Positions 6,035 to 50,059 of a DNA stretch of 55,485 bases are shown piece by piece. Position numbers and translations under genes: made by a program. How positions within the stretch are numbered: the first letter of the stretch is position 1; every line of letters starts with the position of its first letter. This DNA comes from Candidatus Fimenecus sp. (lineage in GTDB: Bacteria; Bacillota; Clostridia; Oscillospirales; Acutalibacteraceae). Under the pieces are notes generated by a model, which saw only the letters and a list, made by a program, of their open reading frames with translations, was not told the DNA's origin and searched no databases. The stretch is taken from the NCBI GenBank assembly GCA_052273845.1, contig DAVZHM010000001.1:1-55485 (forward strand). The letters run 5' to 3'.

Positions 6035-6047
6035 GAATTTGCCGAAC
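6035..6047. repeat. Left copy of the 13-bp direct repeat GAATTTGCCGAAC (putative target-site duplication)
   Basis: It is identical to 50047-50059 and directly abuts the outer end of the left inverted repeat. Confidence 0.85.
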
Positions 6048-6075
6048 GGTGAATTAAAAAAATAACCTGACCCCC
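6048..6075. repeat. Left terminal inverted repeat (IRL) GGTGAATTAAAAAAATAACCTGACCCCC
   Basis: It matches the reverse complement of 50019-50046 at 26 of 28 positions; the mismatches are at positions 19-20. Confidence 0.85.
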
Positions 6076-6147
6076 CTACCCAATTTGCCATAATTCAAAA
6101 AAGATGTTAAAATGAATCAATTTTTGAGGATGATGGAGAACAGAAAA

Positions 6148-7227
6148 ATGGCGGAAACTCGTAATAAAAAATACAAGCAGATAAACGAAGCAGAAAGAGA
6201 ATTGATTGAGCGGCTTCTGAGAAATAACACACCCAAAAAACAAATTGCAAGAATGCTGAACCGCAGCATAACAACTATCCGTAAAGAAATAAAACGAGGC
6301 TCTGTTGAACAGAGAAAAGAAATCAAAACCACAAAAAAAGATGCAAATATTCCTTTATACAAAACCGAACTCGTCTATTTTGCTGATGTAGGTCAGCGTA
6401 TATATAAACAAAACCGTTCGCATTGCGGGCGAAAATGCAAAATCATTGAATGCCGTGATTTTTTAAATTATGTTGAACAACAAGTGAAGTCTGATAAGCT
6501 GTGGTCATTAGATGCAGCAGCAGGACACGCAAAAAAGTTGAATTTATTTGAGCAAACCGTTACAACGCAAACCTTATATAACTGGGTGGATCTCGGTTTA
6601 TGCAGTACAAGAAATATTGATTTACTCAAAAAAGTCGGATGGAAAACACATCAGAAAAAAGTCCGTGAACACAAAAAGTGTCTCGGGCGTTCAATCGATG
6701 AGCGTCCGGAAATAGTTGATTCCCGATTAGAATTCGGGCACTGGGAGGGCGACGGTATTGTCGGAAAAGACAGTAAAGGGCATTGGATTACTCTTATTGA
6801 GAGAAAAACGCGTATGGGATTTATTTTCAATGTTAAAGATAAGCAGGCGTGTCGGATTGTCGAAGTTGTTGACCGACTCGAGAGAATGTTCGGTGCGTTA
6901 TTCCCGCTCGTTTTCAAAACAATTACATTTGATAACGGTACAGAATTTTCAAGTTCTAATTTAATGGAAGGCAATCAAAGAACCATAATCTACTATGCGC
7001 ATCCATATTCCTCTTGGGAGCGGGGTTCTAACGAAAACTGGAACGGAATTATTCGCCGTTATTTTCCAAAGGGAACATCCTTTGATGATGTTCAAGATGA
7101 AGATTTACGCAGAATTCAGAATATGATTAACAATATGCCACGAAAAATGTTTAACTATAACAGTTCGAGAGAATTGTTTTCACAAGAATTACAAATATTG
7201 ATAGCATCGGCAACTGCGGTAGCATAA
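6148..7227 (+). CDS. IS30-family DDE transposase
   Basis: There is an N-terminal HTH (INEAERELIERLL, KKQIARMLNRSITTIRKEIKRG). The catalytic region shows HWEGD, FDNGTEF and YYAHPYSSWERGSNENWNGIIRRYFPKG. The ATG at 6148 is preceded by GGAGAA, whereas the ATG at 6112 has no SD. Confidence 0.9.
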   Translation: MAETRNKKYKQINEAERELIERLLRNNTPKKQIARMLNRSITTIRKEIKRGSVEQRKEIKTTKKDANIPLYKTELVYFADVGQRIYKQNRSHCGRKCKIIECRDFLNYVEQQVKSDKLWSLDAAAGHAKKLNLFEQTVTTQTLYNWVDLGLCSTRNIDLLKKVGWKTHQKKVREHKKCLGRSIDERPEIVDSRLEFGHWEGDGIVGKDSKGHWITLIERKTRMGFIFNVKDKQACRIVEVVDRLERMFGALFPLVFKTITFDNGTEFSSSNLMEGNQRTIIYYAHPYSSWERGSNENWNGIIRRYFPKGTSFDDVQDEDLRRIQNMINNMPRKMFNYNSSRELFSQELQILIASATAVA

Positions 7228-7258
7228 ACCCATCAAAAACAATTACACACGTTATTTA

Positions 7259-7291
7259 GAGCAATTACAATTTTGTGATTGCTCTTTTTTT
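7259..7291 (+). terminator. Intrinsic terminator after the transposase gene
   Basis: The hairpin is GAGCAATTAC-aatttt-GTGATTGCTC (9 of 10 bp), followed by seven T. Confidence 0.65.
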
Positions 7292-7322
7292 ATTTCAAAA
7301 AATGAAAGGAGCAATTACAAAA

Positions 7323-8147
7323 ATGCAGGATGCAAAAATAATTGCGTTATGCAATCAAAAGGGCGGTGTCGGCAAGACGGCGACCACAAGCTGCTTAGGA
7401 ATATCTTTGGCGGAAAGCGGGAATCGTGTACTGTTAGTCGATTTTGACCCGCAGGGAAATTTAACAAAAGGCTTAGGATATCGAGATCGTTCAAAATACC
7501 GATATTCTGTAAAAGACCTGATTTTCGATGAGTTGAACGAAACCACAAAAGAGTTTCGGGATTACATCATTCCTGCGGAGGGCATTGATTTAATTCCTGC
7601 CAACATTGATCTTGCAGGGCTCGACATCCAACTTTCCAGCGTTATAAGCCGTGAAACCGTATTTAAACGGGCGCTTGCACAGTTTATGCCACATTACGAC
7701 TACATACTGATTGACAGCAATCCCGCATTGAATTTATTTACAATTAACACCTTAGTTGCGGCAAACAGCCTGATTATCCCCGTGCAGGCTGAGCCGTATG
7801 CTACCGACGGGCTATCAGACTTGCTACACACAATTCAGACCGCCAAGCGACAGCTTAATCCTGAATTAAGTATTGACGGTATTCTGATTACTATGACCGA
7901 CCAACGCACAAACCTGTCAAAACACATCTCGTCCGAAGTGCGAAACGCCTTCGGCAATCAAATCAAAGTTTTCCACACGGAAATCCCCCGTTGCGTAAAA
8001 ACTGCTGAAGCTTCGCTTTACGGAAAAAGTCCAATGGCGTATGCACCGAATTCCGAGTCGGCACGCGCATATAACCTTTTAGCAAAGGAGGTGTTGAATA
8101 ATGTCGAAGGAGTTACCAAAGCTCAACATAAACAACCCATTAGATGA
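7323..8147 (+). CDS. parA: ParA/Soj-type partition ATPase
   Basis: The deviant Walker A is NQKGGVGKTATT, followed by VLLVDFDPQGN. AGGAG lies upstream of the ATG at 7323. Confidence 0.9.
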   Translation: MQDAKIIALCNQKGGVGKTATTSCLGISLAESGNRVLLVDFDPQGNLTKGLGYRDRSKYRYSVKDLIFDELNETTKEFRDYIIPAEGIDLIPANIDLAGLDIQLSSVISRETVFKRALAQFMPHYDYILIDSNPALNLFTINTLVAANSLIIPVQAEPYATDGLSDLLHTIQTAKRQLNPELSIDGILITMTDQRTNLSKHISSEVRNAFGNQIKVFHTEIPRCVKTAEASLYGKSPMAYAPNSESARAYNLLAKEVLNNVEGVTKAQHKQPIR

Positions 8148-9105
8148 ACTTTTTACAACCGAGGAAGATCGGCAACAGGTACAGCAGGAACGCATTGTTA
8201 CAATTGACTGCAACGAGATAGATGGCTTTCAACAGCACCCGTTCAAAGTGAGAGACAATCAGGATATGGACGAACTGATAGCATCCATTCAAGAAAACGG
8301 AGTTTTAATGCCGTGTATTGTTCGTCCGAAAGAAAACGGACGCTATGAAATGATTGCGGGGCATCGACGCAAGCACGCCGCTATTCGTGCCGGGCTGAGC
8401 ACGCTCCCCTGTATTGTCAGAGACTTGGATGATGTTCAAGCTACAATTTTAATGGTTGACAGCAACGCACACCGTCCATATCTTCTGCCGAGTGAAAAAG
8501 CGTTTTCATATAGTATGAAACTTGACGCTATGAAGCGACAAGCTGGCAGACCGAGCAAAGAAAATTCTGTGCCACTGGCACAGAATTATGAGGGCAAGAC
8601 ATCCCGTGAACTATTGGGTGAGCAAGTTGGTGAAAGCCAAGACCAGGTGCGTCGTTTCATTCGTTTAACCTACCTTATTCCTGAAATATTGCAAATGGTA
8701 GATAATTCGGTTGAAAAGCCAACTGAACCTGAAGCACTATCTATGGCAATGCGGCCCGCGGTTGAAATTTCGTATTTGACGCCTGAAAACCAAAAAATTG
8801 TTTTGGATTTTATGCAAGACACACTTTCTACACCGTCTCACGCACAAGCCATACAACTTCGTGAAATGCAAAACAACGGCATCTTAAATTCACAGGAAAT
8901 CTACAACCTTCTTGCTCAAGAAAAACCGAATCAAAAACCAAGCGGCAAAATACCTCTCAACAGATTTAGCAGATATTTTCCGCCGAACACAAGCGCCGAA
9001 GATATCGAAAAAGGTATCTTTAAGGCGCTTGATTTTTATCGAAAAGCACGGGAAAAAGCCCAAAGAGATACATATGGAAAACCCGAAAAGAACGCACTTG
9101 AGTAG
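8101..9105 (+). CDS. parB: ParB/Spo0J-like nuclease-domain partition protein
   Basis: FQQHPFKVRD, the ParB-box-like MIAGHRRKHAA and LPCIVRDLDD are present. AAGGAGG lies 9 nt upstream of the ATG. The gene overlaps the parA 3' end. Confidence 0.85.
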   Translation: MSKELPKLNINNPLDELFTTEEDRQQVQQERIVTIDCNEIDGFQQHPFKVRDNQDMDELIASIQENGVLMPCIVRPKENGRYEMIAGHRRKHAAIRAGLSTLPCIVRDLDDVQATILMVDSNAHRPYLLPSEKAFSYSMKLDAMKRQAGRPSKENSVPLAQNYEGKTSRELLGEQVGESQDQVRRFIRLTYLIPEILQMVDNSVEKPTEPEALSMAMRPAVEISYLTPENQKIVLDFMQDTLSTPSHAQAIQLREMQNNGILNSQEIYNLLAQEKPNQKPSGKIPLNRFSRYFPPNTSAEDIEKGIFKALDFYRKAREKAQRDTYGKPEKNALE

Positions 9106-11100: not shown

Positions 11101-12378
11101 ATGCCCAAACGAGTTTACATCGATATGGACGGCACACTATGCCGATTCCACGATGTCGAGCATAAATACATCGAGCGAATGTGGGAGCAGGGATTCTACC
11201 TGAACCTCCAGCCGTTTGAAGAATTTTTAAAAGCAATATCTCTCTGTATCGACCGCAACCCCGATACAGAGTTTTTTATTCTTTCGGCGGTTTTGGAGAC
11301 CGAACCACCGTTTGCCGAAACTGAAAAACGCGAATGGTTGCACACACATCTTCCGCAGCTCTCAGATGGAAATATGGTATTTGTTCCTGCCGGTACAGAT
11401 AAGACTGCACTTATTCCCGATATGGGCGCCGACTGTGTATTGATTGACGATTACAACAAAAACCTATCGGAATGGAGGCAGCAAGGCGGCACGGCAATTA
11501 AGTTTATCAATGATATTAACGACCGTGGATTAGGCGCATACGGCGGTGAAAAAGGCAACATTTGGGACGGAGAACGCGTTCGATACGATGATAGCGCAAT
11601 GGCAACTTGCTTGCAGATTGAGCGTTTATCGGGCATTTCAAACACAGCGGAAAAAGAAAATGCTTTTTATGGGTTTTCGGATGATGTTCTTCCTGACCGT
11701 TTTCTTGAATTGCTTCCGTCTTATTTCTCGATACGGCAGACGCACGATGTACTTTTAATTCAGGAGTTATATCGCAAAGGCGAAGGGTTCTTCGATTACG
11801 AATCGGTATCCGCGCGCACACGCGATTTTGTCCGTCAAATAACCGACAGCAAAGCAACCGGTCAGCTCGCCCTTTTTCAAACGAACAATGGCGTGAATGA
11901 TGCGATGATGAATTGCCTTAATACCTGCTACACCCTGTCTCGCGCATACGGTATTCCCCTTACCAAGATAACCGGTTGGATGACCGCTTCAATTCGGCAA
12001 GAGCACCTTTGGCAAACATACCCGGTCACTTGTTCCAACTTGCAGACATACATTACTAAACAGCTTGCACGGGATACAAGGTTGACAGTTCTGTCAGACC
12101 AAATTAAGACAGTATCTACGCAATTAAATCAAACAGAGAGCCGCGTCTATCTACCTGCATCATCAGATGTTGAGATGGATGTTGTTTCTAATGGCACACA
12201 AAAAGATGTGCTTTCTGCTTGGTGCAAACAGATTAAAAACCGCCTAAAAGAATACACCGATGAATGGCGACAGCTCGCCGGAGTAGAATATCCAAACATA
12301 CTGTTCGGGAACGGACAAATAAAATATCATAAATATGCTGAACCTCAAAAAAATCTGCGAAACATTCGTCAAAAATAA
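11101..12378 (+). CDS. HAD-superfamily 5'(3')-deoxyribonucleotidase-like domain fused to a ~250-aa domain of unknown function
   Basis: The N-terminus YIDMDGTLCRF carries the DxDGT HAD motif I. CVLIDDYNKNL resembles the NT5C family. I could not recognise the C-terminal half. Confidence 0.6.
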   Translation: MPKRVYIDMDGTLCRFHDVEHKYIERMWEQGFYLNLQPFEEFLKAISLCIDRNPDTEFFILSAVLETEPPFAETEKREWLHTHLPQLSDGNMVFVPAGTDKTALIPDMGADCVLIDDYNKNLSEWRQQGGTAIKFINDINDRGLGAYGGEKGNIWDGERVRYDDSAMATCLQIERLSGISNTAEKENAFYGFSDDVLPDRFLELLPSYFSIRQTHDVLLIQELYRKGEGFFDYESVSARTRDFVRQITDSKATGQLALFQTNNGVNDAMMNCLNTCYTLSRAYGIPLTKITGWMTASIRQEHLWQTYPVTCSNLQTYITKQLARDTRLTVLSDQIKTVSTQLNQTESRVYLPASSDVEMDVVSNGTQKDVLSAWCKQIKNRLKEYTDEWRQLAGVEYPNILFGNGQIKYHKYAEPQKNLRNIRQK

Positions 12379-12406
12379 ACTTTTTTCATAAGAAAGGACT
12401 GTTAAA

Positions 12407-13408
12407 ATGGCAACGACAACAGTTTTTCGTGTAGAAAAAAATAAAAACTACACAACAATCTCAAATCATCACTTACAGGATAAAAACCTCTCCCTGAAAT
12501 CAAAGGGATTATTAACTTTAATACTTTCTCTGCCGCCCGATTGGGATATGACCTTGAAAGGGCTTGTGTCGCTCAGCGGCGACGGTGTTGATTCAGTTCG
12601 TTCAGGGATTCAGGAGCTGGAAAAAAACGGCTATTTAAGGCGTTCACGCTCTCGCAACACTCTCGGGCAACTGCTATGTACGGAATACACTATTTACGAA
12701 CAGGCGGTAAAAGACGAAGCTATTCCGGAAGTAAACACATTTGAAGAAAACCTGAATACACTGTATACAGAAAATGCCCAGGTTGGAAAATCCAATGTGG
12801 ATAAAAGCAGCCAGATTGGAAAATCCGATGTGGCAGAAACACCAAAGAAAAATGCAGAAAAAAACAGCGACAACCAGATTGGATTTCCCAATGTTGGGAA
12901 ACCCTATATAGGGAAAACCGATACAATAAAAGACTTAAATAATAAAGGTACTGATAATATAAATAACTATCCCAATCAATCTACATATGACAGTAAGTTA
13001 TATAAAGCGCCGAAAGATAATTCGATTGATGAGATGGAAAAAGCGCAAAAGCTTTATGATGAGCGAAAGGCTTACGAGGAAACTGTTAAACAGAACATTT
13101 CTTATGACATCCTGCCCGCACAGGAAATAAGCCGTGATTTTTTAGATTTATGCGTTCAGGTAATGGTCGATGCAATTACAAGCACAAAGCCCTATATAAA
13201 AATCAAAGGGCAAGATATACCTCAGCAGGCTGTTAAAAGCGTATTACTAAAATTAGACGAAAACAACATTGCCTATGTTGATATGTGCATTTCCTCATCT
13301 AAAACCGCGATTAAGAATATGCAGTCATATGTTTTGACCGCCTTATACTGCTCTCAATACGGAAGCGACACATACTATGAACAACTCGTAAAACACGATT
13401 TTTCTTAA
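12407..13408 (+). CDS. Replication-initiator-like winged-helix protein (N-terminal wHTH, C-terminal element-specific domain)
   Basis: FRVEKNKNYTTISNHHLQDKNLSLKSKGLLTLILSLPPDWDMTLKGL and IQELEKNGYL are typical of phage/ICE replication-organiser wHTH proteins. There is an internal IGKS(N/D)V repeat. Confidence 0.55.
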   Translation: MATTTVFRVEKNKNYTTISNHHLQDKNLSLKSKGLLTLILSLPPDWDMTLKGLVSLSGDGVDSVRSGIQELEKNGYLRRSRSRNTLGQLLCTEYTIYEQAVKDEAIPEVNTFEENLNTLYTENAQVGKSNVDKSSQIGKSDVAETPKKNAEKNSDNQIGFPNVGKPYIGKTDTIKDLNNKGTDNINNYPNQSTYDSKLYKAPKDNSIDEMEKAQKLYDERKAYEETVKQNISYDILPAQEISRDFLDLCVQVMVDAITSTKPYIKIKGQDIPQQAVKSVLLKLDENNIAYVDMCISSSKTAIKNMQSYVLTALYCSQYGSDTYYEQLVKHDFS

Positions 13409-14959: not shown

Positions 14960-17900
14960 ATGAAACAACAAATGAAACGAACAACAAAACGCTGCTTCGC
15001 GGTGCTGTTGGCAATGCTTATGCTGTTTTCCTGCTTTTCCACCGTTATTTCGGCAGCGGATTGGAGCGGAGAGGTCTACATTATCAACTATCCGCGCTCG
15101 GCAGATCCGAACAAAAGCGGCTGGGGGCACCCCGATCTGTATTTAATGGACGGCTGGTATATGAAAGCCTCCGACAAAATGGTGATGCGCTCCATCGACG
15201 GCTATGAAGGTCCGACCTGCTACTGCATCGAGCCGGGCATCAGCCAGCATACGGGGGATACACTTACACAACATGGAGAAAACTATTGGGCTAAGCATCC
15301 TGGTAATAGTACCATCGAGAGAGATGTAATTCAAAGCTTAATTGGGCGCATTCTCCAATATGGCTGGACAGGCAATAACAGTTTGAATTGGATTACAACC
15401 GACCCGGCTGCCGCGAATGAGCTGGCGCAGGCAAAGGCTACGCAGATTCTGATTCACGAGGTCATTGTCGGCGAACGGCGTGCGGATTTCTCGAAAGTCA
15501 ACGCACACGACTACGGCTGCAACAATGCCGCCGAGCAGGTCACAGCAGACTGCCCGATTTATGCACAGATTATGGAGCATTACTTCCGAATTGAAGCTGC
15601 TGTCAAACAGCATATGCTACAACCGAACTTCGGCGGTTCGGAATTTGAACTGAGTTACAATAACGGAACATATTCCGTTACGCTGACCGATCAAAACAAT
15701 GTGCTCGGAAAATATGATTTTTCATCGAATGCCGATGTTTCTATTCAAAAAAACGGCAATCAGCTCACTATTTCCACAACCAATCCGACAAGCAAATCCA
15801 TTCAGGTAATGGGCAAAAGCGTCGGGTTGAAAACGCGTGCGTTTGTGGTTTGGTCAGACGGGACAACAGGCAAAGACAATAACGGACAGATTCAGGATCA
15901 AATTCAATACGGCGCGGAAGTTGACGACCCCTTGGCTATGGTTCGTCTAACGCTGAAGGTTGCCACCGGTAATGTCAAAATCGTTAAGGGATCCGAGGAC
16001 GGTCAGGTTGCAGGAATTGATTTCCATTTGGAAGGTGCAGGCGTCAATACCGATGTCACCACGAACGCAAACGGTGAAATACAGGTAGACGGGTTGCGCG
16101 GCGGTGAACAAGTTACCATTACTGAAAAGCCGAAAGATAAATATGTGCAACCGAAAAGCCAAACTGTAACCGTTCTGCCAGGGCAGACGACTTCGGTATA
16201 TTTCTCAAATATCCTCAAAAAATTCACTGTTTCCGTCCAAAAACAGGACAGCGCAACGGGAACAGCACAAGGTGACGCCACTTTGAAAAACGCCGTATAC
16301 GGCATTTATGACGGCGACACGCTTGTAGACACCTACACGACCGATGAAAACGGCTCGTTTACCTCAAAAGAATACATTTGCGGTGAAAATTGGATGCTCA
16401 AGGAGCTGACACCCTCTGAAGGCTATTTGCTTGATGAAACAGTACACCACATCGGCGCAGAACCCGGCAATTTCACAATCGAACATAACCCCATTTCTAT
16501 GACTGTGACCGAAGATGTCAAACTCGGACAAATCGCTATCATCAAGCATAACGACAATGGCGATACGCAAATCGAAACACCCGAAGTCGGCGCAGAATTT
16601 GAAGTGTACTTGAAGTCGGTTGGCTCTTACGCCGCCGCAAATGACCGCGAAAGGGATTTGATGGTCACAGACGATTACGGCTTTGACCAATCAAAAAAAC
16701 TGCCCTACGGCATTTACACGGTGCATCAGACCAAAGGCAACGAGGGCACGGCGTTCATTCCTGACTTTTATGTGGTCATCAATGAACACGGCGAGACCTA
16801 CCGCTACATCATCAACAACGCCACCTTCGAGAGCTATTTGAAATTCACCAAGACGGACGCTGAAACGGGCAAAACGATTCCGCTTGCCGGCACAGGCGTA
16901 CAGCTTTACGATCCTGCGGGCAATCTGATAACAATGTCCTTTACTTATCCGACACCAACGACCGTTGACACCTTCTATACGGACAGCGAGGGCAAGCTCG
17001 TCACACCCGAAAAATTACCTTACGGTAAAGGCTATTCGGCGGTCGAAGTCAAAGCCCCTTACGGCTATGTGCTTGACAGCACGCCTGTGTACTTCGATGT
17101 TACGCCCGAAACAATGCAAGAGGACGGCGGCATTACCGTTGTTATGATTTCCAAGTCCGATATGGCGCAGAAAGGCACGATCGATATCAAGAAACTCGGC
17201 GAGGTATTTAGCTCTGTCACCGAGGAAAACGGCGTTTATCAGCCTGTATTTGCACTTGCAAACAATAAGGGCGCAGAGTTCAGAATTACCGCCGCCGAAG
17301 ATATAGTTACGCCTGACGGCACGATTCGCGCAGCTGCGGGTACCGTCGTGGATAATCTTGTGATTGGTAACGGGGTTGCGAAATCCAAGCCGCTGTATCT
17401 CGGCAAATATTTTGTGGAGGAAACAAAGGCGGCGCACGGTATGGTGTTGGATACCGCTGTTTACGAAGTAACGCTTGCTTACGCAGGGCAGAATGTGTCT
17501 GTGACCACGGCGGCAATTACGGTCACCAATGCGCGACAAAAAGCAATTATTGACCTCAAGAAAGTTTTGGAGCAGGACGAGATGTTTGGAATCGGCACGA
17601 ATGGTGAAATCGGCAAAGTGCAGTTTGCGCTGTATGCTACAGAAAATTTGACGGCAGCGGATGGCTCGGTGATTCCGAAAGACGGTTTACTGGAGATCCT
17701 CAGCTTAAACGAGGACGGCACAGCAACCTTCCACACAGATTTACCCGTAGGTGCCAAAACCTATGTGAAAGAATACAGCACAGACGAACATTATGTTCTG
17801 TCCGACAAAATCTATCCTGTTGTGTTTGAATGCGCAGGGCAGAACACGGCAATCGTGCAGCTGCACATTAACAATGGTGAAGCCGTTGGAAACACACTCA

Positions 17901-18925: not shown

Positions 18926-18959
18926 CACGGTGTCATAAAGTCAGAAAGGAGTTTTTTCA

Positions 18960-38083: not shown

Positions 38084-38290
38084 ATGTGTGAAAACAAAAC
38101 TCAGCAAATGCTTATCCGAATGTCCCCGTATGAATCGGGACTGCTGACATACATTTCTGAACAGGCAAATTTGTCGCGTGCAGAAATCCTCAGGCTGGGA
38201 CTTCGGATTATTGCACGAAATTTAAATCCCAAGGAAGTTCGTGAACTTCAGGACTTCTATGCTACACAGAAAGGCGATGAGAATCAATGA
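38084..38290 (+). CDS. Ribbon-helix-helix relaxosome accessory protein
   Basis: The ATG at 38084 follows GGAGGTG. A beta-strand then helix pattern is visible: QQMLIRMSPYESGLLTYISEQANLSRAEILRLGL. Confidence 0.6.
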   Translation: MCENKTQQMLIRMSPYESGLLTYISEQANLSRAEILRLGLRIIARNLNPKEVRELQDFYATQKGDENQ

Positions 38291-38607
38291 GTGAACAGCG
38301 GGCGCGTACACACCGTGTGCAGGTTCGGCTGAACGATGATGAGTACGAGTACTTTTTGTACAATTTGGAGAGATCCGGTCTTTCTAAGGAAGCATATCTT
38401 CGCAAACTGTTAGCAGAAAAGATTCCAAAGACAAAAGAAATCGGGCAGCACGAACAAGATATGTTGTCACAGCTCTATGCTATCGGAAATAATCTGAATC
38501 AGATTGCGCGTCGTGCGAACACGATGAATGTTATCAGTGTGGAGAAATATTCCGATGCAGTTAAAAAGTTTGAAGATATTATGCAGGCGTTTTTGGAACG
38601 GATGTGA
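38287..38607 (+). CDS. mobC: MobC-family mobilisation protein
   Basis: The signature LYAIGNNLNQIARRAN is present. The start overlaps the previous stop. Confidence 0.8.
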   Translation: MSEQRARTHRVQVRLNDDEYEYFLYNLERSGLSKEAYLRKLLAEKIPKTKEIGQHEQDMLSQLYAIGNNLNQIARRANTMNVISVEKYSDAVKKFEDIMQAFLERM

Positions 38608-38611
38608 TTAT

Positions 38612-41910: not shown

Positions 41911-43869
41911 ATGTATAAAAACAAGAAGGCGCGCGACCGCCCGTTTTACATCGCGGCTGCCATTGGCAGTATAGCAGTTATTTATTTTGCAATCTGCATC
42001 GCACCATATGCTCAAGGCGGTTTGCCTACCGTTTTGCAAAACGCAGTGCAGATTAGCCTTAATCCGGCAGACATAAGTTGGACGCAAGACACTCCAAAGA
42101 CGATTATTGGATGTCTTTTCTTTTATGCCATCGCAGTTGTTATGTTATTCTCATACAAACGCCGGCTACACCGTAGCGGCGTGGAGAATGGCGGTGCGGA
42201 TTATGCGGATGTCCGTAAACTTCGCAAGGAGTTCCACTCGGACTCCCCGAAGCGAATTGTGTATACGGAAAATTTTGCCTTGAGCGTTACGAAAAAGGAC
42301 ACCTATCAGCACAAGCGCAATTATAATACCGTCCTCATCGGCGGTCCGGGTGCAGGCAAAACGACAGGCTATGTTTATCCAAATCTATTGGAGGCGAGCG
42401 CAAGTTATGTTGTGCTGGACCCCAAAGGCGAGGTGTGCCGCAATACGGCGCAGTTTTTGAACAACAAAGGCTACAGCATAAAAGTTCTTAACCTTGTAAA
42501 CCCAAACCGTTCGTGTGGCTACAATCCGTTTACATATATCCGAAAGGACACAGAAACGGAAGCCTATGCGGAGGATGATATCCAAAAAATCGTGACCGCG
42601 ATATATAAAGCGACGACCGCGCCGAACTCTCAAACATTAGATCCGTTTTGGGATGAGGCAGGCAAAATGCTACTGTCTGCACTAATGTATCTACTTTACT
42701 ATTTCGGTGCGGAATCGGAAAAAAACTTCCCGTATTTGATGAACTTAATCCGTGCGGGAAGAATCGAAAACAGCGAGGATGATGACAGACAGTCGCCCCT
42801 GGATATCCTATTTCAGAGCATAGAGCAGAGATTTCCGGATCACATCTGTGTTCGGTACTATCGCAACGCTACAAGTGGTGCCGGAAAGACACAGCAAAGC
42901 GTACAAATCACATTACTCGCACGGCTTCAAAAGTTTGAAATGTCTTCTGTCGCGGCAATGGCTACAAGGGACGAGTTGGAACTGTCCGCACTTGCGGACA
43001 AGCCAACGGCGCTTTATCTGATTATTCCCGATAATGATACCAGTTACAATTTTATTGTTTCACTTCTGTATATCCAGCTTTTCCAAGCATTGTATGACAA
43101 AGCGGATCGTGTGTATCAAGGCAGATTGCCGCGTTTTATACACATCGTTATGGACGAATTTGCGAATGTAAATACGCCCGACGATTTCCTATTCACTTTA
43201 GCGACCTGCCGTTCCCGAAATATCGGGGTATCGATTATCCTGCAAAACCTGTCACAGCTGAAAGCAAAATACAAAGAGGGCTGGGAAAACATCATCGGGC
43301 AATGTGATGAATTCCTGTATCTTGGCGGTAACGAAAGTTCTACACACGAGTATGTGTCAAAAATGCTCGGAAAAGAGACTATCGATACAACCACCTATGG
43401 TCGGCGTTACGGTATGCACGGTGATGCTTCATCAAACTTTCAGTTTGCCGGGCGCGAGCTAATGACGCCAGACGAAGTTCGTGTTCTGCCTTACGATCAA
43501 GCGATTTTATTTGTGAAAAATGCGCTGCCGCTGGTGGATAAAAAAATCGATGTGTTTCATTATAAGCCTGCAGCAGGCACGGCAATTTGCGGCAATAAGG
43601 ATATGGAATATTCAATTCCGCTGCGCTCTGAACGGCAGAATTCGGGTACCGTACACCGCGCGAAAAAGAAAAATTCCGACAATGCGCCGAAAGATATTTT
43701 TGAATCAACTGCGGTCGGTGAATCGAAAAAAGAAACGCTGGTCGAATTCATTATCAACGGCAGACGCGTCAACATCTCGGATTTGGAGGTTTCTGACCTT
43801 TTGGAAATGTATTCTGTCGATGCTGACGAGTTGGAAGCATATATTCAAAACTTTTCAACAAACAATTAA
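41911..43869 (+). CDS. Type IV coupling protein (VirD4/TraG family)
   Basis: There are two N-terminal TM helices. Walker A is GGPGAGKTTG and the Walker B-like motif is IHIVMDEFANV. Confidence 0.9.
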   Translation: MYKNKKARDRPFYIAAAIGSIAVIYFAICIAPYAQGGLPTVLQNAVQISLNPADISWTQDTPKTIIGCLFFYAIAVVMLFSYKRRLHRSGVENGGADYADVRKLRKEFHSDSPKRIVYTENFALSVTKKDTYQHKRNYNTVLIGGPGAGKTTGYVYPNLLEASASYVVLDPKGEVCRNTAQFLNNKGYSIKVLNLVNPNRSCGYNPFTYIRKDTETEAYAEDDIQKIVTAIYKATTAPNSQTLDPFWDEAGKMLLSALMYLLYYFGAESEKNFPYLMNLIRAGRIENSEDDDRQSPLDILFQSIEQRFPDHICVRYYRNATSGAGKTQQSVQITLLARLQKFEMSSVAAMATRDELELSALADKPTALYLIIPDNDTSYNFIVSLLYIQLFQALYDKADRVYQGRLPRFIHIVMDEFANVNTPDDFLFTLATCRSRNIGVSIILQNLSQLKAKYKEGWENIIGQCDEFLYLGGNESSTHEYVSKMLGKETIDTTTYGRRYGMHGDASSNFQFAGRELMTPDEVRVLPYDQAILFVKNALPLVDKKIDVFHYKPAAGTAICGNKDMEYSIPLRSERQNSGTVHRAKKKNSDNAPKDIFESTAVGESKKETLVEFIINGRRVNISDLEVSDLLEMYSVDADELEAYIQNFSTNN

Positions 43870-43884
43870 GAAAGGATTTTCACT

Positions 43885-44211
43885 ATGAAAAAAACAACAA
43901 AACTGAACAAAATCATCCGCAGAGCCGTTACGCTGGTCGTATCGGTTCTTTTGATTCTCACGGTTACCATCCTGCCCGTGTTTGCCGAAGGTGACGGTGT
44001 GACAGATAGCTTAACAAAATTCAACGACCTGATGTTTTCCATCGTGCGCCTGCTCGGTATTGCCGCCTGCATATGGGGGATTGTTGAATTTGCAATGTCT
44101 ATGCAAAGCCACGACGGTGGGCAAAAGTCAAGAGGCATCACCATATTTGCCGCAGGACTGATTATCGTTTTCGCAAAAGAAATTTTGACCGTGCTCGGGG
44201 TTAGTTTATGA
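43885..44211 (+). CDS. Maff2-family small membrane protein
   Basis: It is 108 aa with a signal/TM segment and two further TM helices. It occupies the typical position after the coupling protein in Clostridial ICEs. Confidence 0.6.
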   Translation: MKKTTKLNKIIRRAVTLVVSVLLILTVTILPVFAEGDGVTDSLTKFNDLMFSIVRLLGIAACIWGIVEFAMSMQSHDGGQKSRGITIFAAGLIIVFAKEILTVLGVSL

Positions 44212-44249
44212 GAAAAAAGAGATAAAAGGCGCAAGGGAGGTGTCCATTT

Positions 44250-45104
44250 TTGTTATTTAAACCTATGCTCTTAAACTTTTGGGGCGAACAAGCAATCGCT
44301 CAGCTTGAGGATGCGTTGGCTATTTGGAGGCAAAGATACGAAAGTATTTTCAGTATTCTTGTGCAAGACCCCTCCGAGTTTCAAAACGGCGCAATTTGGA
44401 ATACAGTTACGGGAATCATTCGCATTGTTGAGGCAACGGGCGTGTCGCTGCTCATTCTGTTTTTTCTGTACGGTGTAATTAAATCCACCTTAGATTACAG
44501 AGACTTAGTCCGGAATCCCCGCCTTGTTCTAATGCAGTTTGTCCGTTTCTTTTTCGCAAAATTTTTCGTGACAAACGCAACCGATTTAATGCTGAGCATT
44601 ATATTAATTGTCCGCAATATCATTCTGCAAATCAATCCGGCTTCACCAACTATGGATTTACACCTGCCAGACGATTTGAGAACTGCGCTTGTAACGGCGG
44701 ATTGGGGCGCAGGAATGGGTGCTTTTGCCGCATCGTTGGCAGGCACAGCAATCATTTGGCTGTTATCCATAATTCTCGTGGTTGTCGTTTACGGTAGATT
44801 TTTCAAAATATTTCTGTTGTCTGCTATTGCTCCGATACCTCTTGCGGGCTATGCAAGTGAAGCAACTTCACCTATCGGTCGAAACTTTTTGAAATCATAT
44901 ATCGGAGAATGTTTACGCGGTGTTTTAATGCTTACAGCTTGTTTGATTTTTTCCGCATTTACAATGGTGACTCCCGGTTGGGCGGCAACCTCTCCCGGAG
45001 GTATGACTTGGGATTATATAGGGAATGTCACTCTGCAAATGCTTTTGTTGGTCATCATTGTGAAAGGTTCAGACAGAATCATAAAAGAAATTTTTGGTTT
45101 ATAA
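44250..45104 (+). CDS. VirB6/TrbL-like polytopic T4SS membrane protein
   Basis: At least five hydrophobic helices are visible. A TTG start follows GGGAGG. It sits in the syntenic position. Confidence 0.65.
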   Translation: MLFKPMLLNFWGEQAIAQLEDALAIWRQRYESIFSILVQDPSEFQNGAIWNTVTGIIRIVEATGVSLLILFFLYGVIKSTLDYRDLVRNPRLVLMQFVRFFFAKFFVTNATDLMLSIILIVRNIILQINPASPTMDLHLPDDLRTALVTADWGAGMGAFAASLAGTAIIWLLSIILVVVVYGRFFKIFLLSAIAPIPLAGYASEATSPIGRNFLKSYIGECLRGVLMLTACLIFSAFTMVTPGWAATSPGGMTWDYIGNVTLQMLLLVIIVKGSDRIIKEIFGL

Positions 45105-45114
45105 GGAGACTTTT

Positions 45115-45483
45115 ATGGAAATTAAACTTAATAAGGATATTCAAAAACTTCAGGACAGCTTCGCTTTTGGCTTGAGTTTCAGGCAAACGGTATTCGGCGG
45201 CATTGGACTTGTTTTGGGAATTGTAACCTATGTTGAAACCACAAAGCACGGAATGAATACAGAACTCGCATCTTGGCTGTGCATCGCCGCTGTTGCTCCG
45301 TTTGCCGCGCTCGGCTTTATTTCCTACCACGGTATGCCGTTTGAAAAACTTGTTCGGGTGTGGCTTAAGCATTATCTTCTTTGCCCTAAAAAGGTTGTTT
45401 TTCGATTGGAAAATGACTTTTATGAGCAGGACAAACCGCGTATAGCTAAAGCACGGGAAAAGGAGGCAAAGCAGGATGAGTAA
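45115..45483 (+). CDS. PrgI/TcpE-like (VirB3-analogue) membrane protein
   Basis: The ATG at 45115 follows AAGGAG. It has two TM helices and lies immediately upstream of, and overlapping, the VirB4-like gene. Confidence 0.65.
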   Translation: MEIKLNKDIQKLQDSFAFGLSFRQTVFGGIGLVLGIVTYVETTKHGMNTELASWLCIAAVAPFAALGFISYHGMPFEKLVRVWLKHYLLCPKKVVFRLENDFYEQDKPRIAKAREKEAKQDE

Positions 45484-47848
45484 AACGCTGAAAAACACAA
45501 GGCGTCAGGATAAGGAGCAATTAAAATCCATTCGCTTTACACAAAACTGCATTCCACTGGAGCAATTCTATGAGGATGGTATTTTTTTGGTACAGTCAGG
45601 TAAAAAGTACAATAATAAATACTCGGCTACATATCAACTTCAGGATATTTCTTACCTAACGCTTTCAGACGAAATGCAAAAACAGATTTTCTTTGCTTGG
45701 TCTGCGGTTCTTAACGCACTTGATCCCGGATCAACAAACAAAATCAATGTCATCAAACACAAAATCAGTACGGCGACCTTGGATCGGTTTATGATGCACA
45801 GCCAAAACCCGCAGTATGCAAAAATCCAAGCGGAGTATAACCGTATTTTAAAACAGCGGGCAATGCAGGGGAACGGAATGATTCAAGAGGTGTATCTAAC
45901 CATTTCCGTCAACAAAAAGGATATAGAATCTGCCCGTAGTTTCTTTTTGCGCTCAGCATCAACGCTGCAATCCCTGTTATTAAAGCTCGGCAGCGCCTGC
46001 CGCCAACTCTCGGGCAAGGAAAGGCTGGAGCTTCTGCGCGATATTTATCGGAGCGACAATGAAAATGAACCAACTTTCGATTTGCAACAGGCTTTACGCG
46101 GTGGGTCATCTGCCAAGAACTACATCTCTCCTGAAAGTATGGAGTTTGAAGCAGATTATTTTAAACTTGGCAAGGTTTATGGCCGCGCGCTTGTGTTGCA
46201 TAGCTATCCGACCTATCTCAAGGATTCTGTCGTTTCGGACCTGTGTGAACTCAACAGATGTCTGATATTCAGTATGGATATTATTCCCGTGCCAACAGAT
46301 GAAGCGGTACAGGAGGCGGAAAAACGCGCGACAAGTGTAGAATCAAACATCACAAAATGGTATCAAAGGCAATATAACAACAAGAATTTTGCCGCTGAAC
46401 TAACCTATGATCTGAAGCAACAGCGCGAACAAGCGCAGGAGTACCTAACAGATTTAACCGAGCGAGATCAGCATCTGATGTACGCAGTTGTGACGATGGT
46501 GCATTTTGCGGACTCTAAACAACAACTTGATGAAGATACCGAAAGTATTTTGGCAACAGCACGCAGTAGCGTACAATGCCGTATGCAGGTGCTTCGCTGG
46601 CAACAGTTGGATGGCTTAAATACGGCTCTGCCGCTGGGCGTCCGTAGGATTGAGGATATAATGTCCCTAACCACCGAGGGCGTTGCAGGCTTTATACCGT
46701 TTAAGTCGACCGAAATTCAGCAGGCGCACGGCTTTTGTTATGGGCAAAATCAAATTTCCCGCAATCTCATTATGATTGATCCGAGAAATCAGCAATCGGC
46801 AAACAGCGTTATTTGCGGTCGTCCGGGATCAGGAAAATCTATGCTCGAAAAATGGATTGCTCTGAATAAAATTCTCGCGACTGTAAACGACCGTCATATC
46901 ATACTTATTATCGATCCGGAACGGGAATATGCACCACTTGTAAAAGCATTGGGAGGTGAAGTAGTTTACCTTTCAGCACAAAGCAAAACATATGTAAATG
47001 CAATGGGCGTAAGTAGTGGGTATGACAAATCTGAAAATCCGATTATCGACAAGGCGGAATTTATGCTCTCGCTTTGTGAACAGCTAATGTATCCGACGAT
47101 TATCGGACCGAAGCAAAAGTCTTTGATTGACCGTTGCACAGAGCTTGTTCTTCGGAATTATGTTCGGGGCGGCTGTGTAGGTGATGCGCCGACCTTGAAA
47201 GACTTTTACGAATGTATGAGAGCTCAGCCCGAAGAAGAAGCAAAAGATATTGCTCTGTCATTGGAATTATATGCAACAGGCTCCCTGTCTGTCTTTGCAA
47301 ATCAAACCAATGTAAATATGGACAATCACATTATTTGCTTCGATATTCACGATTTAAGTGAAAGCTTGACGGGTATAGCAATGCTCATTCTGTTTGACCA
47401 TATTCAGAATAGGATGATCCACAACCGAGCAAATGGGATTACGACCAGTATTGTTGCCGACGAATTCTATATGATGCTTTTGCGGGAATATACTGCAAAT
47501 TTCTTTTTCCGTTGCTGGAAACGCGGAAGGAAATATGACTGTGATTTCTGCGGCATTACGCAGAATGTGGAAGATTTGCTCCGAAGCCCGAACGGGCGCG
47601 CGATTCTATCCACTTCGGAGCTGATTATTATGCTCAACCAAGCGCCGTTGGACTGTGAACAGTTGTCCGAACTGCTTGACATCAGCGAAAACCAGCAGGA
47701 ATACATCACCAATGCAAAGCCGGGTTCGGGGCTGATTAAGGTCGGCGGTACACTGATTCCGTTTGAAAATGATATTCCGAAGGACACAGAAATCTATAAA
47801 TTGCTCACTACAAAGCCCGGTGAAGCTATTTATGATATTGGTGTGTGA
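45476..47848 (+). CDS. VirB4-family T4SS ATPase
   Basis: Walker A is GRPGSGKSM and the Walker B-like motif is SIVADEFYMML. At 790 aa it has the typical size. Confidence 0.9.
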   Translation: MSKTLKNTRRQDKEQLKSIRFTQNCIPLEQFYEDGIFLVQSGKKYNNKYSATYQLQDISYLTLSDEMQKQIFFAWSAVLNALDPGSTNKINVIKHKISTATLDRFMMHSQNPQYAKIQAEYNRILKQRAMQGNGMIQEVYLTISVNKKDIESARSFFLRSASTLQSLLLKLGSACRQLSGKERLELLRDIYRSDNENEPTFDLQQALRGGSSAKNYISPESMEFEADYFKLGKVYGRALVLHSYPTYLKDSVVSDLCELNRCLIFSMDIIPVPTDEAVQEAEKRATSVESNITKWYQRQYNNKNFAAELTYDLKQQREQAQEYLTDLTERDQHLMYAVVTMVHFADSKQQLDEDTESILATARSSVQCRMQVLRWQQLDGLNTALPLGVRRIEDIMSLTTEGVAGFIPFKSTEIQQAHGFCYGQNQISRNLIMIDPRNQQSANSVICGRPGSGKSMLEKWIALNKILATVNDRHIILIIDPEREYAPLVKALGGEVVYLSAQSKTYVNAMGVSSGYDKSENPIIDKAEFMLSLCEQLMYPTIIGPKQKSLIDRCTELVLRNYVRGGCVGDAPTLKDFYECMRAQPEEEAKDIALSLELYATGSLSVFANQTNVNMDNHIICFDIHDLSESLTGIAMLILFDHIQNRMIHNRANGITTSIVADEFYMMLLREYTANFFFRCWKRGRKYDCDFCGITQNVEDLLRSPNGRAILSTSELIIMLNQAPLDCEQLSELLDISENQQEYITNAKPGSGLIKVGGTLIPFENDIPKDTEIYKLLTTKPGEAIYDIGV

Positions 47849-47851
47849 GTT

Positions 47852-49399
47852 ATGGCAAAGGATATAAAGACACGGAAGAAACAGCCTAAGACAATCAAAA
47901 CTATGAAGGGAACGGTCAAGAACCTTGACCGTTCCCTTCGTGCCGGCAGAGATATAAAAGAAATATCTGAGAGGGTGCTTTCGCAGGATACTCCCGATAA
48001 TGCTCCTGCCGAACTGTTGCAATCTGGTGAACGCTGGGGTGCAGAATTTGCAGGACGCAAAACTACAAAGACCGCATATCGTTCTGCCCGCAGCGCTGTG
48101 TCCGTAAAACAGAGAACCTCCGCCGCGCGGGAAAGCTTCCAAACTGCAAAAGCAACTTTTAAAGAATCACGCTCTGCTATAAGGGCGGAAATCAAATCTG
48201 TTAAGACATCTGTAAAAACTGCACGAAACACGATAAAAACAGCAAACAGCGCAAGAAAAGCAGGATCTTCCGCTGCAAAAGGAGCAAGCACCGCCGCAAA
48301 GGGGTCTTTCCAAGCGGCAAAAGCAGTTGCGAAAACCACATTTTATGCTGCAAAGGTTACTGCAAAAGCGTTTGCGGCGGCGATTAAAACTGCTGTAGAA
48401 GCTATTTCGGCATCAGTAGAAGCAATCGGTGCGTTCCTTGCCGCAGGCGGCTGGATTGTTCTCGTTGCAATTTTGATTGTGGTTATACTTGCCGCCCTTT
48501 TCAGCTCGGCTTTCGGTATTCATTTTGCTGACGATGCGAATCCAAACGCGCTGTCAACGGTGCAACAAGAAATAAATCGGGAGTTTTCTGAAAAATTGAG
48601 CGAGCAAAAAGCGCTGTTACAGGGCTATGACCGAATCGTTGTTCGCCCTGCTCCATCTGTCACAAAGTGGAACGAAATCCTTGCTGTTTATTCCACCCGC
48701 GCGCAAAATGAAAACCTTGTACCCATTGAAATGAATGAACAAACTGAGTCACTTCTACGGGATACAATGTGGAATATGATTTCTTTTTCAGTTTCCTCCG
48801 AAACGGTAACCTCGGTTGAATCAGATGAAGCTGGGAACAGTATTACTGTTACAGAAGCCTATGGTGTAGTTACTGTGATGTATAAAAGCACAGAGGAAAT
48901 GGCTACGCTTTATCAATTTTCCGATGGTGACCGAGAGACGCTCTCTCAAGTGCTTTCTATGTACGCCGATTTTGGAGGGATAACCGTAGGCAACGCAGGA
49001 AACGGCAGATTGATAAATCCGTGTCCTGACGGACATTTTAACGGTAATGACTTTCCTGCCTATGCGGGAAGTGGAGAGTACCACGCGGGACGCGACATCT
49101 CTTGTCCCATTGGTACACCAATTTATGCGGCTGCGGACGGAACGGTTATACATATTAACGACCAAGCGGAGACTTATGGAAATCATATTATGATTTCGCA
49201 CAGCGATGAAATATACACCCTATATGCTCACTGTGATTCTTTGCTTGTATCAGTCGGACAAGATGTGAAACAAGGACAACAAATCGCTTGGAGTGGTGCG
49301 ACAGGCAATGTAACCGGTACTCATCTGCATTTTGAAGTCCGCGTCGGCGGTTCAAAATACCGCGTGAACAATGTTGATCCATTGGATTGGATCGCCTAA
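47852..49399 (+). CDS. Membrane-anchored M23-family peptidoglycan metallopeptidase (T4SS cell-wall hydrolase)
   Basis: HAGRDIS, GNHIMISH and THLHFEV are the M23 motifs. The N-terminal half is Ala/Lys-rich and contains a TM helix. Confidence 0.85.
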   Translation: MAKDIKTRKKQPKTIKTMKGTVKNLDRSLRAGRDIKEISERVLSQDTPDNAPAELLQSGERWGAEFAGRKTTKTAYRSARSAVSVKQRTSAARESFQTAKATFKESRSAIRAEIKSVKTSVKTARNTIKTANSARKAGSSAAKGASTAAKGSFQAAKAVAKTTFYAAKVTAKAFAAAIKTAVEAISASVEAIGAFLAAGGWIVLVAILIVVILAALFSSAFGIHFADDANPNALSTVQQEINREFSEKLSEQKALLQGYDRIVVRPAPSVTKWNEILAVYSTRAQNENLVPIEMNEQTESLLRDTMWNMISFSVSSETVTSVESDEAGNSITVTEAYGVVTVMYKSTEEMATLYQFSDGDRETLSQVLSMYADFGGITVGNAGNGRLINPCPDGHFNGNDFPAYAGSGEYHAGRDISCPIGTPIYAAADGTVIHINDQAETYGNHIMISHSDEIYTLYAHCDSLLVSVGQDVKQGQQIAWSGATGNVTGTHLHFEVRVGGSKYRVNNVDPLDWIA

Positions 49400-49400
49400 A

Positions 49401-49461
49401 GAAATTGGCATCTTAGCCGCAAGCTCGCTATGAGCGAGTTGTCGGCCGAGATGCCAATTTC
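49401..49461. repeat. 61-nt nested imperfect palindrome directly after the last T4SS gene
   Basis: GAAATTGGCATCT pairs with AGATGCCAATTTC (13 bp). Inner pairs are GCCG/CGGC and CTCGC/GCGAG. No T-tract follows directly; a weaker hairpin with TTTT follows at 49466-49488. Confidence 0.6.
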
Positions 49462-49537
49462 CAAAAGACTTGATACACAAGACTTTTTCACTCTACAAAA
49501 AATTGCTTTTTAGGAAAAAATCGTATTATGCAATTCA

Positions 49538-49579
49538 AAAATTCGCACATTTGCGATATACATTTGTATGTGATAAGAT
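49538..49579 (+). promoter_or_regulatory. Outward-facing sigma-A-type promoter, paralogous to the 13.4-kb promoter
   Basis: The shared box AAAATTCGCACATTTG is present. It then reads TTGCGA, 17 nt, TGaTAAGAT (extended -10). Confidence 0.5.
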
Positions 49580-49585
49580 ATATAT

Positions 49586-50038
49586 TGATGTAAGTAGTGA
49601 GATACTTATGTCGTTGCCAAACCTACCGGCGATGAGCAGAAATTGTTCTCTATTTACATCAGTTTATATCGAACCTTGACAACCGCATATCAAAGCAATG
49701 GTGACATTCCGCTGTAAACGAGCTGTTCCGAGCGCGCCGCCAAGACTGCCTGTTCTTATTTGAATACAAAACGCGTAAGGCTTCAGATGAAACCCTACGA
49801 ACGGAAAGGCACGAGCAGAAACATCGTGTTCGGATTTATAACGGTGACTCCGTTAGAGAGCGAAGACTTTACAGCAGGGACAATGATACTTCCTTCGGTC
49901 GTAGGTCGAGCGTGAACGAACCGTCGCAACCCGCGAGAACGGCTGCGAGAAACCCTCGCAGAGGAGATAAAACAATCCTATGAGGATGTCGCGTCAACAT
50001 CCCGCCGTTGTTTTTAACGGGGGTCAACTTATTTTTTT
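49586..50038 (+). ncRNA. Candidate ~450-nt structured non-coding transcript at the right end of the element (family unknown)
   Basis: No ORF of 60 aa or more lies within about 49680-50028 in any frame, even though this stretch is GC-richer than its surroundings. Several local hairpins are visible: CGAAC..CACGA-9-TCGTG-TTCG, AACGG-5-CCGTT, GCGAG-5-CTCGC and GGATGT-7-ACATCC. The terminal hairpin CCCGCCGTT-6-AACGGGGG with a T-run overlaps the IRR. Confidence 0.4.
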
Positions 50039-50046
50039 AATTCACC
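50019..50046. repeat. Right terminal inverted repeat (IRR)
   Basis: The plus strand reads GGGGGTCAACTTATTTTTTTAATTCACC. Its reverse complement matches IRL at 26 of 28 positions. Confidence 0.85.
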
Positions 50047-50059
50047 GAATTTGCCGAAC
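50047..50059. repeat. Right copy of the 13-bp direct repeat GAATTTGCCGAAC
   Basis: It is identical to 6035-6047 and directly abuts the outer end of the IRR. Confidence 0.85.

Follow-up and report, generated by a model that had tools for sequence, protein, structure and literature searches.

A 44-kb conjugative element of gut Clostridia whose sole recombinase is an IS30-family transposase and which probably behaves as a single insertion sequence

Here we describe a 44-kb conjugative element in Candidatus Fimenecus sp. The sequence analyzed, hereafter the window, is the whole 55,485-nt stretch of contig DAVZHM010000001.1 (assembly GCA_052273845.1, positions 1 to 55,485, forward strand). The element occupies positions 6048-50046 (43,999 bp, approximately 29 passenger genes). 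With a probability that we place at roughly 85%, it is an integrative and conjugative element (ICE) whose only recombinase is an IS30-family DDE transposase and which behaves as one insertion sequence (IS). An earlier note on this DNA had proposed that an IS30-like enzyme mobilizes the whole unit. Empty sites, multiple genomic contexts, the junctions of relatives, and the constancy of a 13-bp duplication all support that proposal.

The ends of the element were established by direct reading and by a repeat search. The left terminal inverted repeat, GGTGAATTAAAAAAATAACCTGACCCCC (6048-6075, + strand), consists of the tip GGTG and a core, AATTAAAAAAATAACCTGACCCCC, that is kept in all relatives. 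It is abutted on its outer side by the 13-mer GAATTTGCCGAAC (6035-6047), and the full left junction (6035-6075) reads acgggGAATTTGCCGAAC followed directly by GGTGAATTAAAAAAATAACCTGACCCCC. The right repeat, GGGGGTCAACTTATTTTTTTAATTCACC (50019-50046, − strand), consists of the core AATTAAAAAAATAAGTTGACCCCC, also kept in relatives, and a minus-strand tip GGTG. A second copy of GAATTTGCCGAAC abuts it on the outside (50047-50059), such that the full right junction (50019-50059) reads GGGGGTCAACTTATTTTTTTAATTCACC followed directly by GAATTTGCCGAACtcgc. The two repeats agree at 26 of 28 positions. In a repeat-finding run on the window, the same pair was recovered as 29-nt arms that were 93% complementary, the second-longest inverted repeat. 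With up to three mismatches permitted, the 24-nt repeat core was found exactly twice in the window versus 0.01 times expected by chance. Because these occurrences are at the two element ends only, there is no internal right repeat 3' of the transposase gene. The G+C content is approximately 0.50-0.53 in the flanks versus approximately 0.38-0.49 inside the element, and no tRNA genes were found in the window.

The transposase gene (6148..7227, + strand; open reading frame (ORF) 6112/6148-7227) has its ATG at 6148, 100 bp inside the left repeat. It encodes a protein of 359 aa in which Pfam identified an N-terminal HTH_38 domain and an rve domain, and which scored 244.8 bits against NCBIfam NF033563 transpos_IS30 (cut-off, 80). 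Residues D202, D262, and E296 are invariant across six aligned sequences, including IS1470, and 33 residues lie between D262 and E296, the DD(33)E spacing expected for the IS30 family. A consensus scan revealed a promoter-like site for the gene, TTGCCA-17-TAAAAT with an extended −10 TG (6085..6113, + strand); relatives carry an equivalent site, TTGCCA-17-TACAAT. According to domain and NCBIfam searches, this transposase is the sole recombinase encoded by the element: no ORF of the window, including nine unannotated ones, matched a tyrosine or serine recombinase (Phage_integrase, Resolvase, Recombinase). Similarly, tblastn with the transposase found no second copy or remnant in the window. Thus, the abutting 13-mers and 26-of-28 repeats described in the earlier note, its placement and family assignment of the transposase gene, its failure to see a right-repeat copy after the stop codon, and its report of no tyrosine or serine recombinase were all borne out. 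Separately, a Logan contig encodes a predicted 463-aa protein (P0034) in which the N-terminal 58% of the transposase, at 90% identity, is fused to ParA; the fusion probably arose from the same element by deletion or frameshift.

All large ORFs between the repeats lie on the + strand, and Pfam searches confirmed the cargo that the note had listed: partition, rep-like, relaxosome, and type IV secretion system (T4SS) genes. The relaxosome genes (38287..39979, + strand) encode a NikA/MobC accessory protein and a MobA/VirD2-type, MOBP-like relaxase (Pfam PF21983, PF05713, PF03432), the latter with a partial TraI_MobP match. The mating apparatus (41911..49399, + strand) comprises a VirD4-type coupling protein, TrbC/VirB2-like, VirB6-like, and PrgI (VirB3-like) proteins, a VirB4 ATPase, and an M23 peptidoglycan hydrolase; a DUF3801 protein is also encoded between the relaxase and the coupling protein. 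The conjugation matches were PF03432, T4SS-DNA_transf/TraG-D_C, AAA_10/P-loop_TraG (VirB4), PrgI, TrbL_2, TrbC, and M23, and all of the conjugation ORFs are uninterrupted. The element therefore has the relaxase, coupling protein, and VirB4-type T4SS of an ICE, together with its own recombinase and boundaries that are precise with respect to an empty site.

The empty site of the window was found in related strains. Exact-protein look-ups using the sulfatase, the transposase, and the M23 peptidase of the window led to nothing but occupied sites of its own lineage, in which the element is present at a single site on four contigs; for the NuoF-like flank protein, no exact-protein record was found. 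The empty site was reached via P0259, a member of the 90%-identity cluster of the neighboring maturase, on eight contigs (L060-L067) where the sulfatase gene comes straight after the hydrogenase gene with no element between them. The intervening spacer, GAATTTGCCGAAa, is 151 nt, the exact length of the reconstructed empty site that the note had proposed searching for. It holds the 13-mer once, not twice, within ...ataaatacgggGAATTTGCCGAAatcgcatataaaaagcaccc..., with one single-nucleotide polymorphism (SNP); the lineage has a few other SNPs. A second empty site was obtained for a relative on contig ERZ773202.5, again through cluster members. In this case, the occupied left end (L021) reads ...gttaccaCTTTTTTTGACAA followed directly by TATCAATT..., and the occupied right end (L042) reads ...AATTCACC followed directly by CTTTTTTTGACAAttacgactgcgg..., versus gttaccaCTTTTTTTGACAAttacgactgcgg in the uninterrupted locus (L053/L054 and 11 similar places). 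The 13-mer is a true target-site duplication. Moreover, since the boundaries defined by the empty sites coincide with the tips of the repeats, no integrase encoded outside the element is needed.

Both ends could be paired for seven insertions: the window, L017/L020 (Ruminococcus sp.), L018/L019 (Ca. Fimenecus sp.), L021/L042, L027/L037, L033/L047, and L044/L036. The elements range from 37.5 to 44.4 kb. A 13-bp direct repeat lies flush with the tips in all seven, and its sequence is different in each; the duplication length is thus constant across insertion sites, a point that the note had left for checking. IS30 itself makes 2-3-bp target duplications. The note's description of 13 bp as atypical holds relative to that value, but the length is not an oddity of this one element given its occurrence throughout the paired insertions and the 14 bp of IS1470, the closest named IS (Clostridium perfringens; approximately 43% identity). 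Specifically, an IS1470 copy on the C. perfringens plasmid pCP310-85 (L069, NZ_CP075969.1, approximately 380-1615) is flanked by the 14-bp direct repeat ATTTATTAAAAAAT. This copy was the one informative case; that in L068 is without matching flanks. Because of the 14-bp repeat, long duplication seems to be a trait of the Clostridial IS30 subgroup rather than an ICE peculiarity, and the data suggest that long target duplications are general in that subgroup. As judged from these flanks, the 2-3-bp rule is apparently not applicable to the IS30 subgroup considered here.

Relatives of the element indicate that the unit moves as a whole. Scanning with the repeat core identified both ends of related elements in two metagenome-assembled genomes (MAGs), one of Ruminococcus sp. 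and one of Ca. Fimenecus sp., as well as 28 human-gut metagenome loci; no match was found among IMG/VR viral contigs. The transposase P0003, which is 87% identical to that of the window, was seen in at least nine unrelated chromosomal contexts, each time at the head of the same ParA-ParB-...-adhesin gene order. The assembly collection lists it in 109 blocks, and the 90%-identity cluster to which it belongs has 394 member sequences. More distant transposases, P0032 (60% identity) and P0031 (59% identity), also head ParA/ParB elements, while P0080 (52% identity) belongs to a plain IS of approximately 1.3 kb with its own repeats, and relatives at approximately 50% identity are plain ISs on contigs of 1.2-2 kb. 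Based on the P0032 and P0031 elements versus the P0080 IS, the IS30 subgroup holds both ISs and a clade of giant ICE-carrying derivatives. The earlier note had raised the possibility of an approximately 1.2-kb IS moving separately with its own right repeat. None was found in the window, and the transposase travels with the whole element. The many genomic contexts of an identical transposase and element, which include the Ruminococcus sp. and Ca. Fimenecus sp. MAGs, and the junction contigs described below are indirect signs of excision and transfer within the family.

In the ends examined (L007-L048), lineages differ in the outermost 4 nt of the element (6048-6051 and 50043-50046) but share the adjoining 24 nt. 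On the left, the window has the tip GGTG, the P0003 type has TATC, and L041 has GACC; on the right, CACC predominates, with CACT in L031 and ACCA in L036. The tips are perfectly complementary in the window and are not in most relatives. In L008, a tyrosine integrase gene (8232-9446) lies approximately 450 bp outside the left end of the ICE, beside HTH_17/HTH_36 genes and a type I restriction-modification (R-M) system. Probably, the ICE landed beside or within another genomic island, and the integrase is not part of the ICE.

Joined ends, which the note had suggested looking for, were found in two relatives on contigs of unit length. In L011 (ERZ27287012:k141_408124; 42,532 nt), the right end is joined to the left as ...AATTCACC-AA-TATCAATT..., or, over a longer reading, ...TTTTTTTAATTCACC-AA-TATCAATTAAAAAAA..., with tips CACC-AA-TATC. 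In L029 (ULUW01060759.1; 38,981 nt), the junction reads ...CACC-CT-TATC.... The spacer is 2 bp in both. In IS30 minicircles and (IS30)2 dimers, the repeats likewise abut with a 2-bp spacer of variable sequence, and the joined ends of the relatives appear to be of this IS30 type. A junction-created transposase promoter, as in IS30 and IS911, was considered and found unsupported: a consensus scan across the L011 junction detected only the transposase's own internal promoter.

These data are consistent with the following cycle. The transposase would bind the two 28-nt terminal repeats and join them, whether by copy-out or cut-out, into a circular or tandem form in which the ends abut with a 2-bp spacer. 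For the window element, this form would read ...AATTCACC-NN-GGTGAATT.... Partition of the circle, and perhaps its replication, would fall to ParA/ParB, the HTH_36/DUF6017 protein, and the primase-like protein. The MOBP-type relaxase would then nick the circle for export via the VirB4/VirD4 T4SS. Finally, the transposase would insert the joined ends at a new site, whether in a recipient or in the original cell; a 13-bp stagger between its cuts would give rise to the 13-bp duplication.

The insertions share a position relative to promoters. Moving outward from the tip on one side, the commonest layout is the 13-bp duplication, 22-24 nt, TTGACA, 17 nt, and TATAAT. In the window, the targeted promoter is that of the sulfatase gene, TTGACG-17-TATAAT (5982..6010, − strand; consensus scan, 11 of 12 matches), which faces away from the element and whose −35 box is 24 nt beyond the left duplication copy. 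A strong outward promoter was present in 25 of 40 non-junction flanks, and the gap was 22-24 nt in 21 of these 25. Matches to TTGACA at five or more of six positions clustered at gaps of 22, 23, and 24 nt (6, 7, and 5 cases, respectively) versus 0-3 cases at any other position. On a non-redundant basis, there were 18 promoter groups, approximately 16 of which had a convincing −35 and −10. Such a promoter was found on exactly one side in six of the seven paired insertions, and either end of the element may face it. In two instances, the same promoter was hit independently 1 nt apart (L021/L040 versus L026; L043/L046 versus L028/L024, from different samples), such that particular promoters are used recurrently. 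The distance rule is also obeyed in L070, which has a transposase of 59% identity. Neither the duplicated 13 bp nor the gap of 22-24 nt is conserved in sequence, but both are AT-rich (75% and 73% AT, respectively). In L019 (1200-1270, − strand), from the Ca. Fimenecus sp. MAG, the promoter targeted on the right-end side drives a tRNA gene. Mimicry of the right repeat by the target, suggested by the AT-rich stretch followed by TTGAC in both, was unsupported: in-register identity was 0.34 versus 0.24-0.36 at other shifts, with none beyond the −35 hexamer.

Target choice would accordingly be positional and not sequence-specific at the duplicated 13 bp, with the promoter-proximal edge placed 22-24 bp upstream of the −35 hexamer in either orientation. 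Such positional targeting would therefore land the element in terminator-promoter spacers, leaving genes and core promoters intact. In the window, the terminator hairpin of the host Fe-hydrogenase operon (50070..50100, − strand; outside the element by direct reading and intact in the empty sites) lies beyond the right duplication copy, indicating that the target was a terminator-promoter spacer. The enzyme may sense RNA polymerase, the geometry of the DNA upstream, or the TTGACA box as such.

Several observations weigh against this interpretation of the element and its targeting. The 13-bp stagger falls outside the 2-3 bp usual for IS30, and a shared T permits a 14-bp reading in four of the seven pairs. 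The two junctions were seen in relatives and not in the window lineage, and the left tip is GGTG in the window versus TATC in those relatives; in addition, neither contig need be a free circle, since tandem copies or assembly joins could give the same reading. Some flanks are without a convincing promoter (L027/L037 and several unpaired ends), and survivorship of intergenic insertions could inflate the association with promoters. Conjugative competence is predicted from gene content only, and an origin of transfer (oriT) was not located in the element.

Among the alternatives, the one that fares best, while still unlikely, is that a conjugative plasmid was fixed in the chromosome by a single IS30-type replicon fusion: the transposon ends would be real and the element a now immobile relic. 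The single site occupied in the window lineage and the finding of no junction for that exact lineage would fit this history, and the ParA/ParB and Rep-like genes suggest plasmid ancestry. However, the transposase ORF is intact, with its DDE triad and its own promoter, and the conjugation genes are undamaged. Moreover, the near-identical repeats and perfect duplication argue for a recent event, and close relatives are plainly mobile.

We consider it very improbable that the element is a composite, with two IS30 copies, one of them decayed, flanking the cargo as a compound transposon. Large elements bounded by IS30 genes do occur in gut Clostridia: the IScream phages are prophages with IS30 genes at both ends, one of which is truncated (Nature 2025, PMC12823448). 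Their transposases are 36-41% identical to that of the window. Nevertheless, a second transposase copy is absent from the window even as a remnant, the 620 bp at the right end are non-coding and hold only a pemK-like motif and the 28-nt repeat, and no phage structural genes or phage-type Pfam matches were found in the element.

Even less credible is an ordinary IS of approximately 1.2 kb at the edge of an ICE or integrated plasmid whose integrase is elsewhere or lost, the distal repeat and 13-mer being coincidental. The terminal position of the transposase gene and the plain ISs among relatives at approximately 50% identity are what this would predict. Against it, no right repeat is found near the transposase stop even with three mismatches; the repeat core is confined to the two ends of the unit, in the window as in the six other pairs; in the empty sites, what is missing is exactly the 44 kb between the 13-mers; and no other recombinase is present. 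Finally, a site-specific recombinase acting on a 13-bp attachment (att) core, with the 13-mers as attL and attR cores, has next to no standing: 13 bp is a typical core length for tyrosine recombinases, but the 13-mers differ wholly between insertions (GAATTTGCCGAAC, ATTCAAAAACGCT, TAATTTACTAAAT, CTTTTTTTGACAA, and others), the joined-end forms contain no matching 13-mer and separate the ends by only 2 bp, and the element encodes no recombinase of the tyrosine or serine type.

The ICE described here was compared with known systems. ICE6013 of Staphylococcus aureus uses an IS30-like DDE transposase for integration and excision, inserts at many sites, and exists in integrated and extrachromosomal forms (PMC3942029, PMC7563843, PMC6036120). 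It is 13-14 kb, belongs to the Tn916 superfamily, and encodes a MobT (Rep_trans) relaxase and a TcpA coupling protein (PMC7563843, PMC3175761). The window element likewise uses an IS30-like DDE transposase as its recombination module instead of a tyrosine or serine recombinase, but it is 44 kb and encodes a PF03432 MOBP-type relaxase, VirD4, VirB4, and ParA/ParB, with no Rep_trans match. ICE6013 is reported to make 3-bp duplications (Smyth and Robinson 2009), versus 13 bp for the window element. We know of no report of promoter-distance targeting for ICE6013.

The TnGBS family of streptococcal ICEs inserts 15-17 bp upstream of sigma-A promoters (PMC3942029). The window element resembles these in being a DDE-transposase ICE with plasmid-like maintenance, in its fixed distance upstream of promoters, in its avoidance of gene disruption, and, presumably, in a circular intermediate. 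In contrast, the TnGBS transposase belongs to the Mutator-like p-MULT superfamily, while the best family for the window enzyme is IS30, and the distance in the window family is 22-24 bp, taken from the −35 box to the near edge of the 13-bp duplication. As the transposase superfamilies are unrelated, the likeness in targeting is convergent. With the IScream phages, the window element shares the co-option of a Clostridial IS30-family transposase for an element of approximately 40 kb in human-gut Clostridia; a circular form, detected for the phages and presumed here, and a broad host range are further likenesses. Unlike the phages, it is conjugative, has one transposase gene, and carries only the 28-nt repeat at its far end.

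IS30-family ISs and the window element have in common the transposase architecture, the DD(33)E triad, terminal repeats of 20-30 bp (28 nt here), and the 2-bp spacer in joined ends. Instead of a compact IS of approximately 1-1.3 kb, however, the window element holds passenger genes amounting to 42 kb, which fill the stretch from the transposase gene to the right repeat, and it differs from IS30 itself in the 13-bp duplication and positional promoter targeting. Full-text literature searches turned up neither a Clostridial ICE of IS30 type nor an IS30-family enzyme described as targeting promoters, weak evidence given that subscription journals mostly lie outside the coverage of that search. The note had not recognized the combination of a Clostridial-type T4SS module with a DDE recombinase as described. 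Its view stands insofar as this family and its targeting rule appear undescribed; the kind of element, an ICE with an IS30-type DDE transposase, is already known, with ICE6013 and the IScream phages (PMC12823448) as precedents.

The remaining cargo begins with the partition genes parA (probable start, 7324) and parB (7275..9105, + strand; Pfam AAA_31/CbiA and ParB_N), which adjoin the transposase gene in relatives. An NT5C-like protein of 425 aa and an HTH_36/DUF6017 protein (11101..13408, + strand; Pfam; syntenic in L007-L016) form a putative replication-initiator-like module. A 319-aa ORF (13873-14832) contains two tandem 72-nt units (14402-14545, 74% identical) that encode a proline/threonine-rich repeat (Pfam PT repeat). 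Two large surface adhesins of 1321 and 1624 aa follow (14960..23834, + strand), with thioester (TED) and SpaA domains identified by Pfam. A 2945-aa multidomain protein (26445..35282, + strand) has Pfam matches to MutS_I (MutS domain I), LPD25, N6 methylase, and SNF2/ResIII helicase; proteins of this type are typical of conjugative-element leading regions or anti-restriction functions, and it may have such a role. The distant relative L070 encodes a 2671-aa homolog directly after ParB. DpnD/PcfM-like, Fic-domain, and primase-like CHC2 zinc-ribbon proteins are encoded next (35308..37879, + strand; Pfam), the primase-like protein having a weak match to TIGR01391 dnaG.

Near the right end lies a structured-RNA motif, Rfam pemK RF02913 (49880..49983, + strand; 39.1 bits versus a gathering score of 34.8), which reads towards the end of the element. 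It is approximately 35 nt inside the right repeat and is present in the window and in all five relatives checked (L011 9732-9835, L029 1214-1317, L020 970-1073, L042 5498-5601, and L047 3156-3259), with 42.1 bits in the relatives. No pemK/mazF gene was found near the motif. In the joined-end form, it would fall roughly 270 nt upstream of the transposase gene.

Both flanks are ordinary chromosome. The left flank encodes a DpnII R-M system, a DUF4874 protein, and a sulfatase maturase with its sulfatase. The R-M genes (49-1343, + strand), which have no relation to the element, encode a DpnII-type restriction endonuclease, truncated where the window begins, and an N6/N4 DNA methylase. The right flank holds the Fe-hydrogenase operon.

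DDE-transposase ICEs had been considered rare, the examples being TnGBS, ICE6013, and the mycoplasma ICEs. The present analysis adds proof from empty sites, a duplication that stays at 13 bp, junctions with a 2-bp spacer, the breadth of the family, and the promoter-distance rule. A complete VirB4/VirD4 conjugation system of 44 kb is thus within the reach of an IS30-type enzyme, the family is common in gut Clostridia, and ICE surveys defined by tyrosine or serine recombinases will miss such elements. In a broader reading, to which we give even odds, these elements are an undescribed and widespread family of 37-44-kb ICEs in Oscillospirales-type Clostridia of the human and animal gut, whose IS30-family enzyme has gained two traits untypical of its family: a fixed 13-bp stagger, and positional targeting at 22-24 bp before the −35 box of active sigma-70 promoters. 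The strategy known from TnGBS, of landing close to a promoter on its upstream side, would then have been invented twice, independently. The enzyme may achieve this by sensing promoter-bound RNA polymerase or upstream DNA geometry and not sequence. The promoter-distance rule would then be a clean case of convergent safe-harbor targeting by two unrelated transposase superfamilies, and it raises the question of how a transposase reads promoter position. A promoter-guided, sequence-independent integrase with approximately 40 kb of cargo could serve as a DNA-insertion tool for anaerobes that are hard to engineer. Seen alongside the IScream phages, the family suggests that large mobile elements have repeatedly recruited IS30 enzymes of Clostridia.

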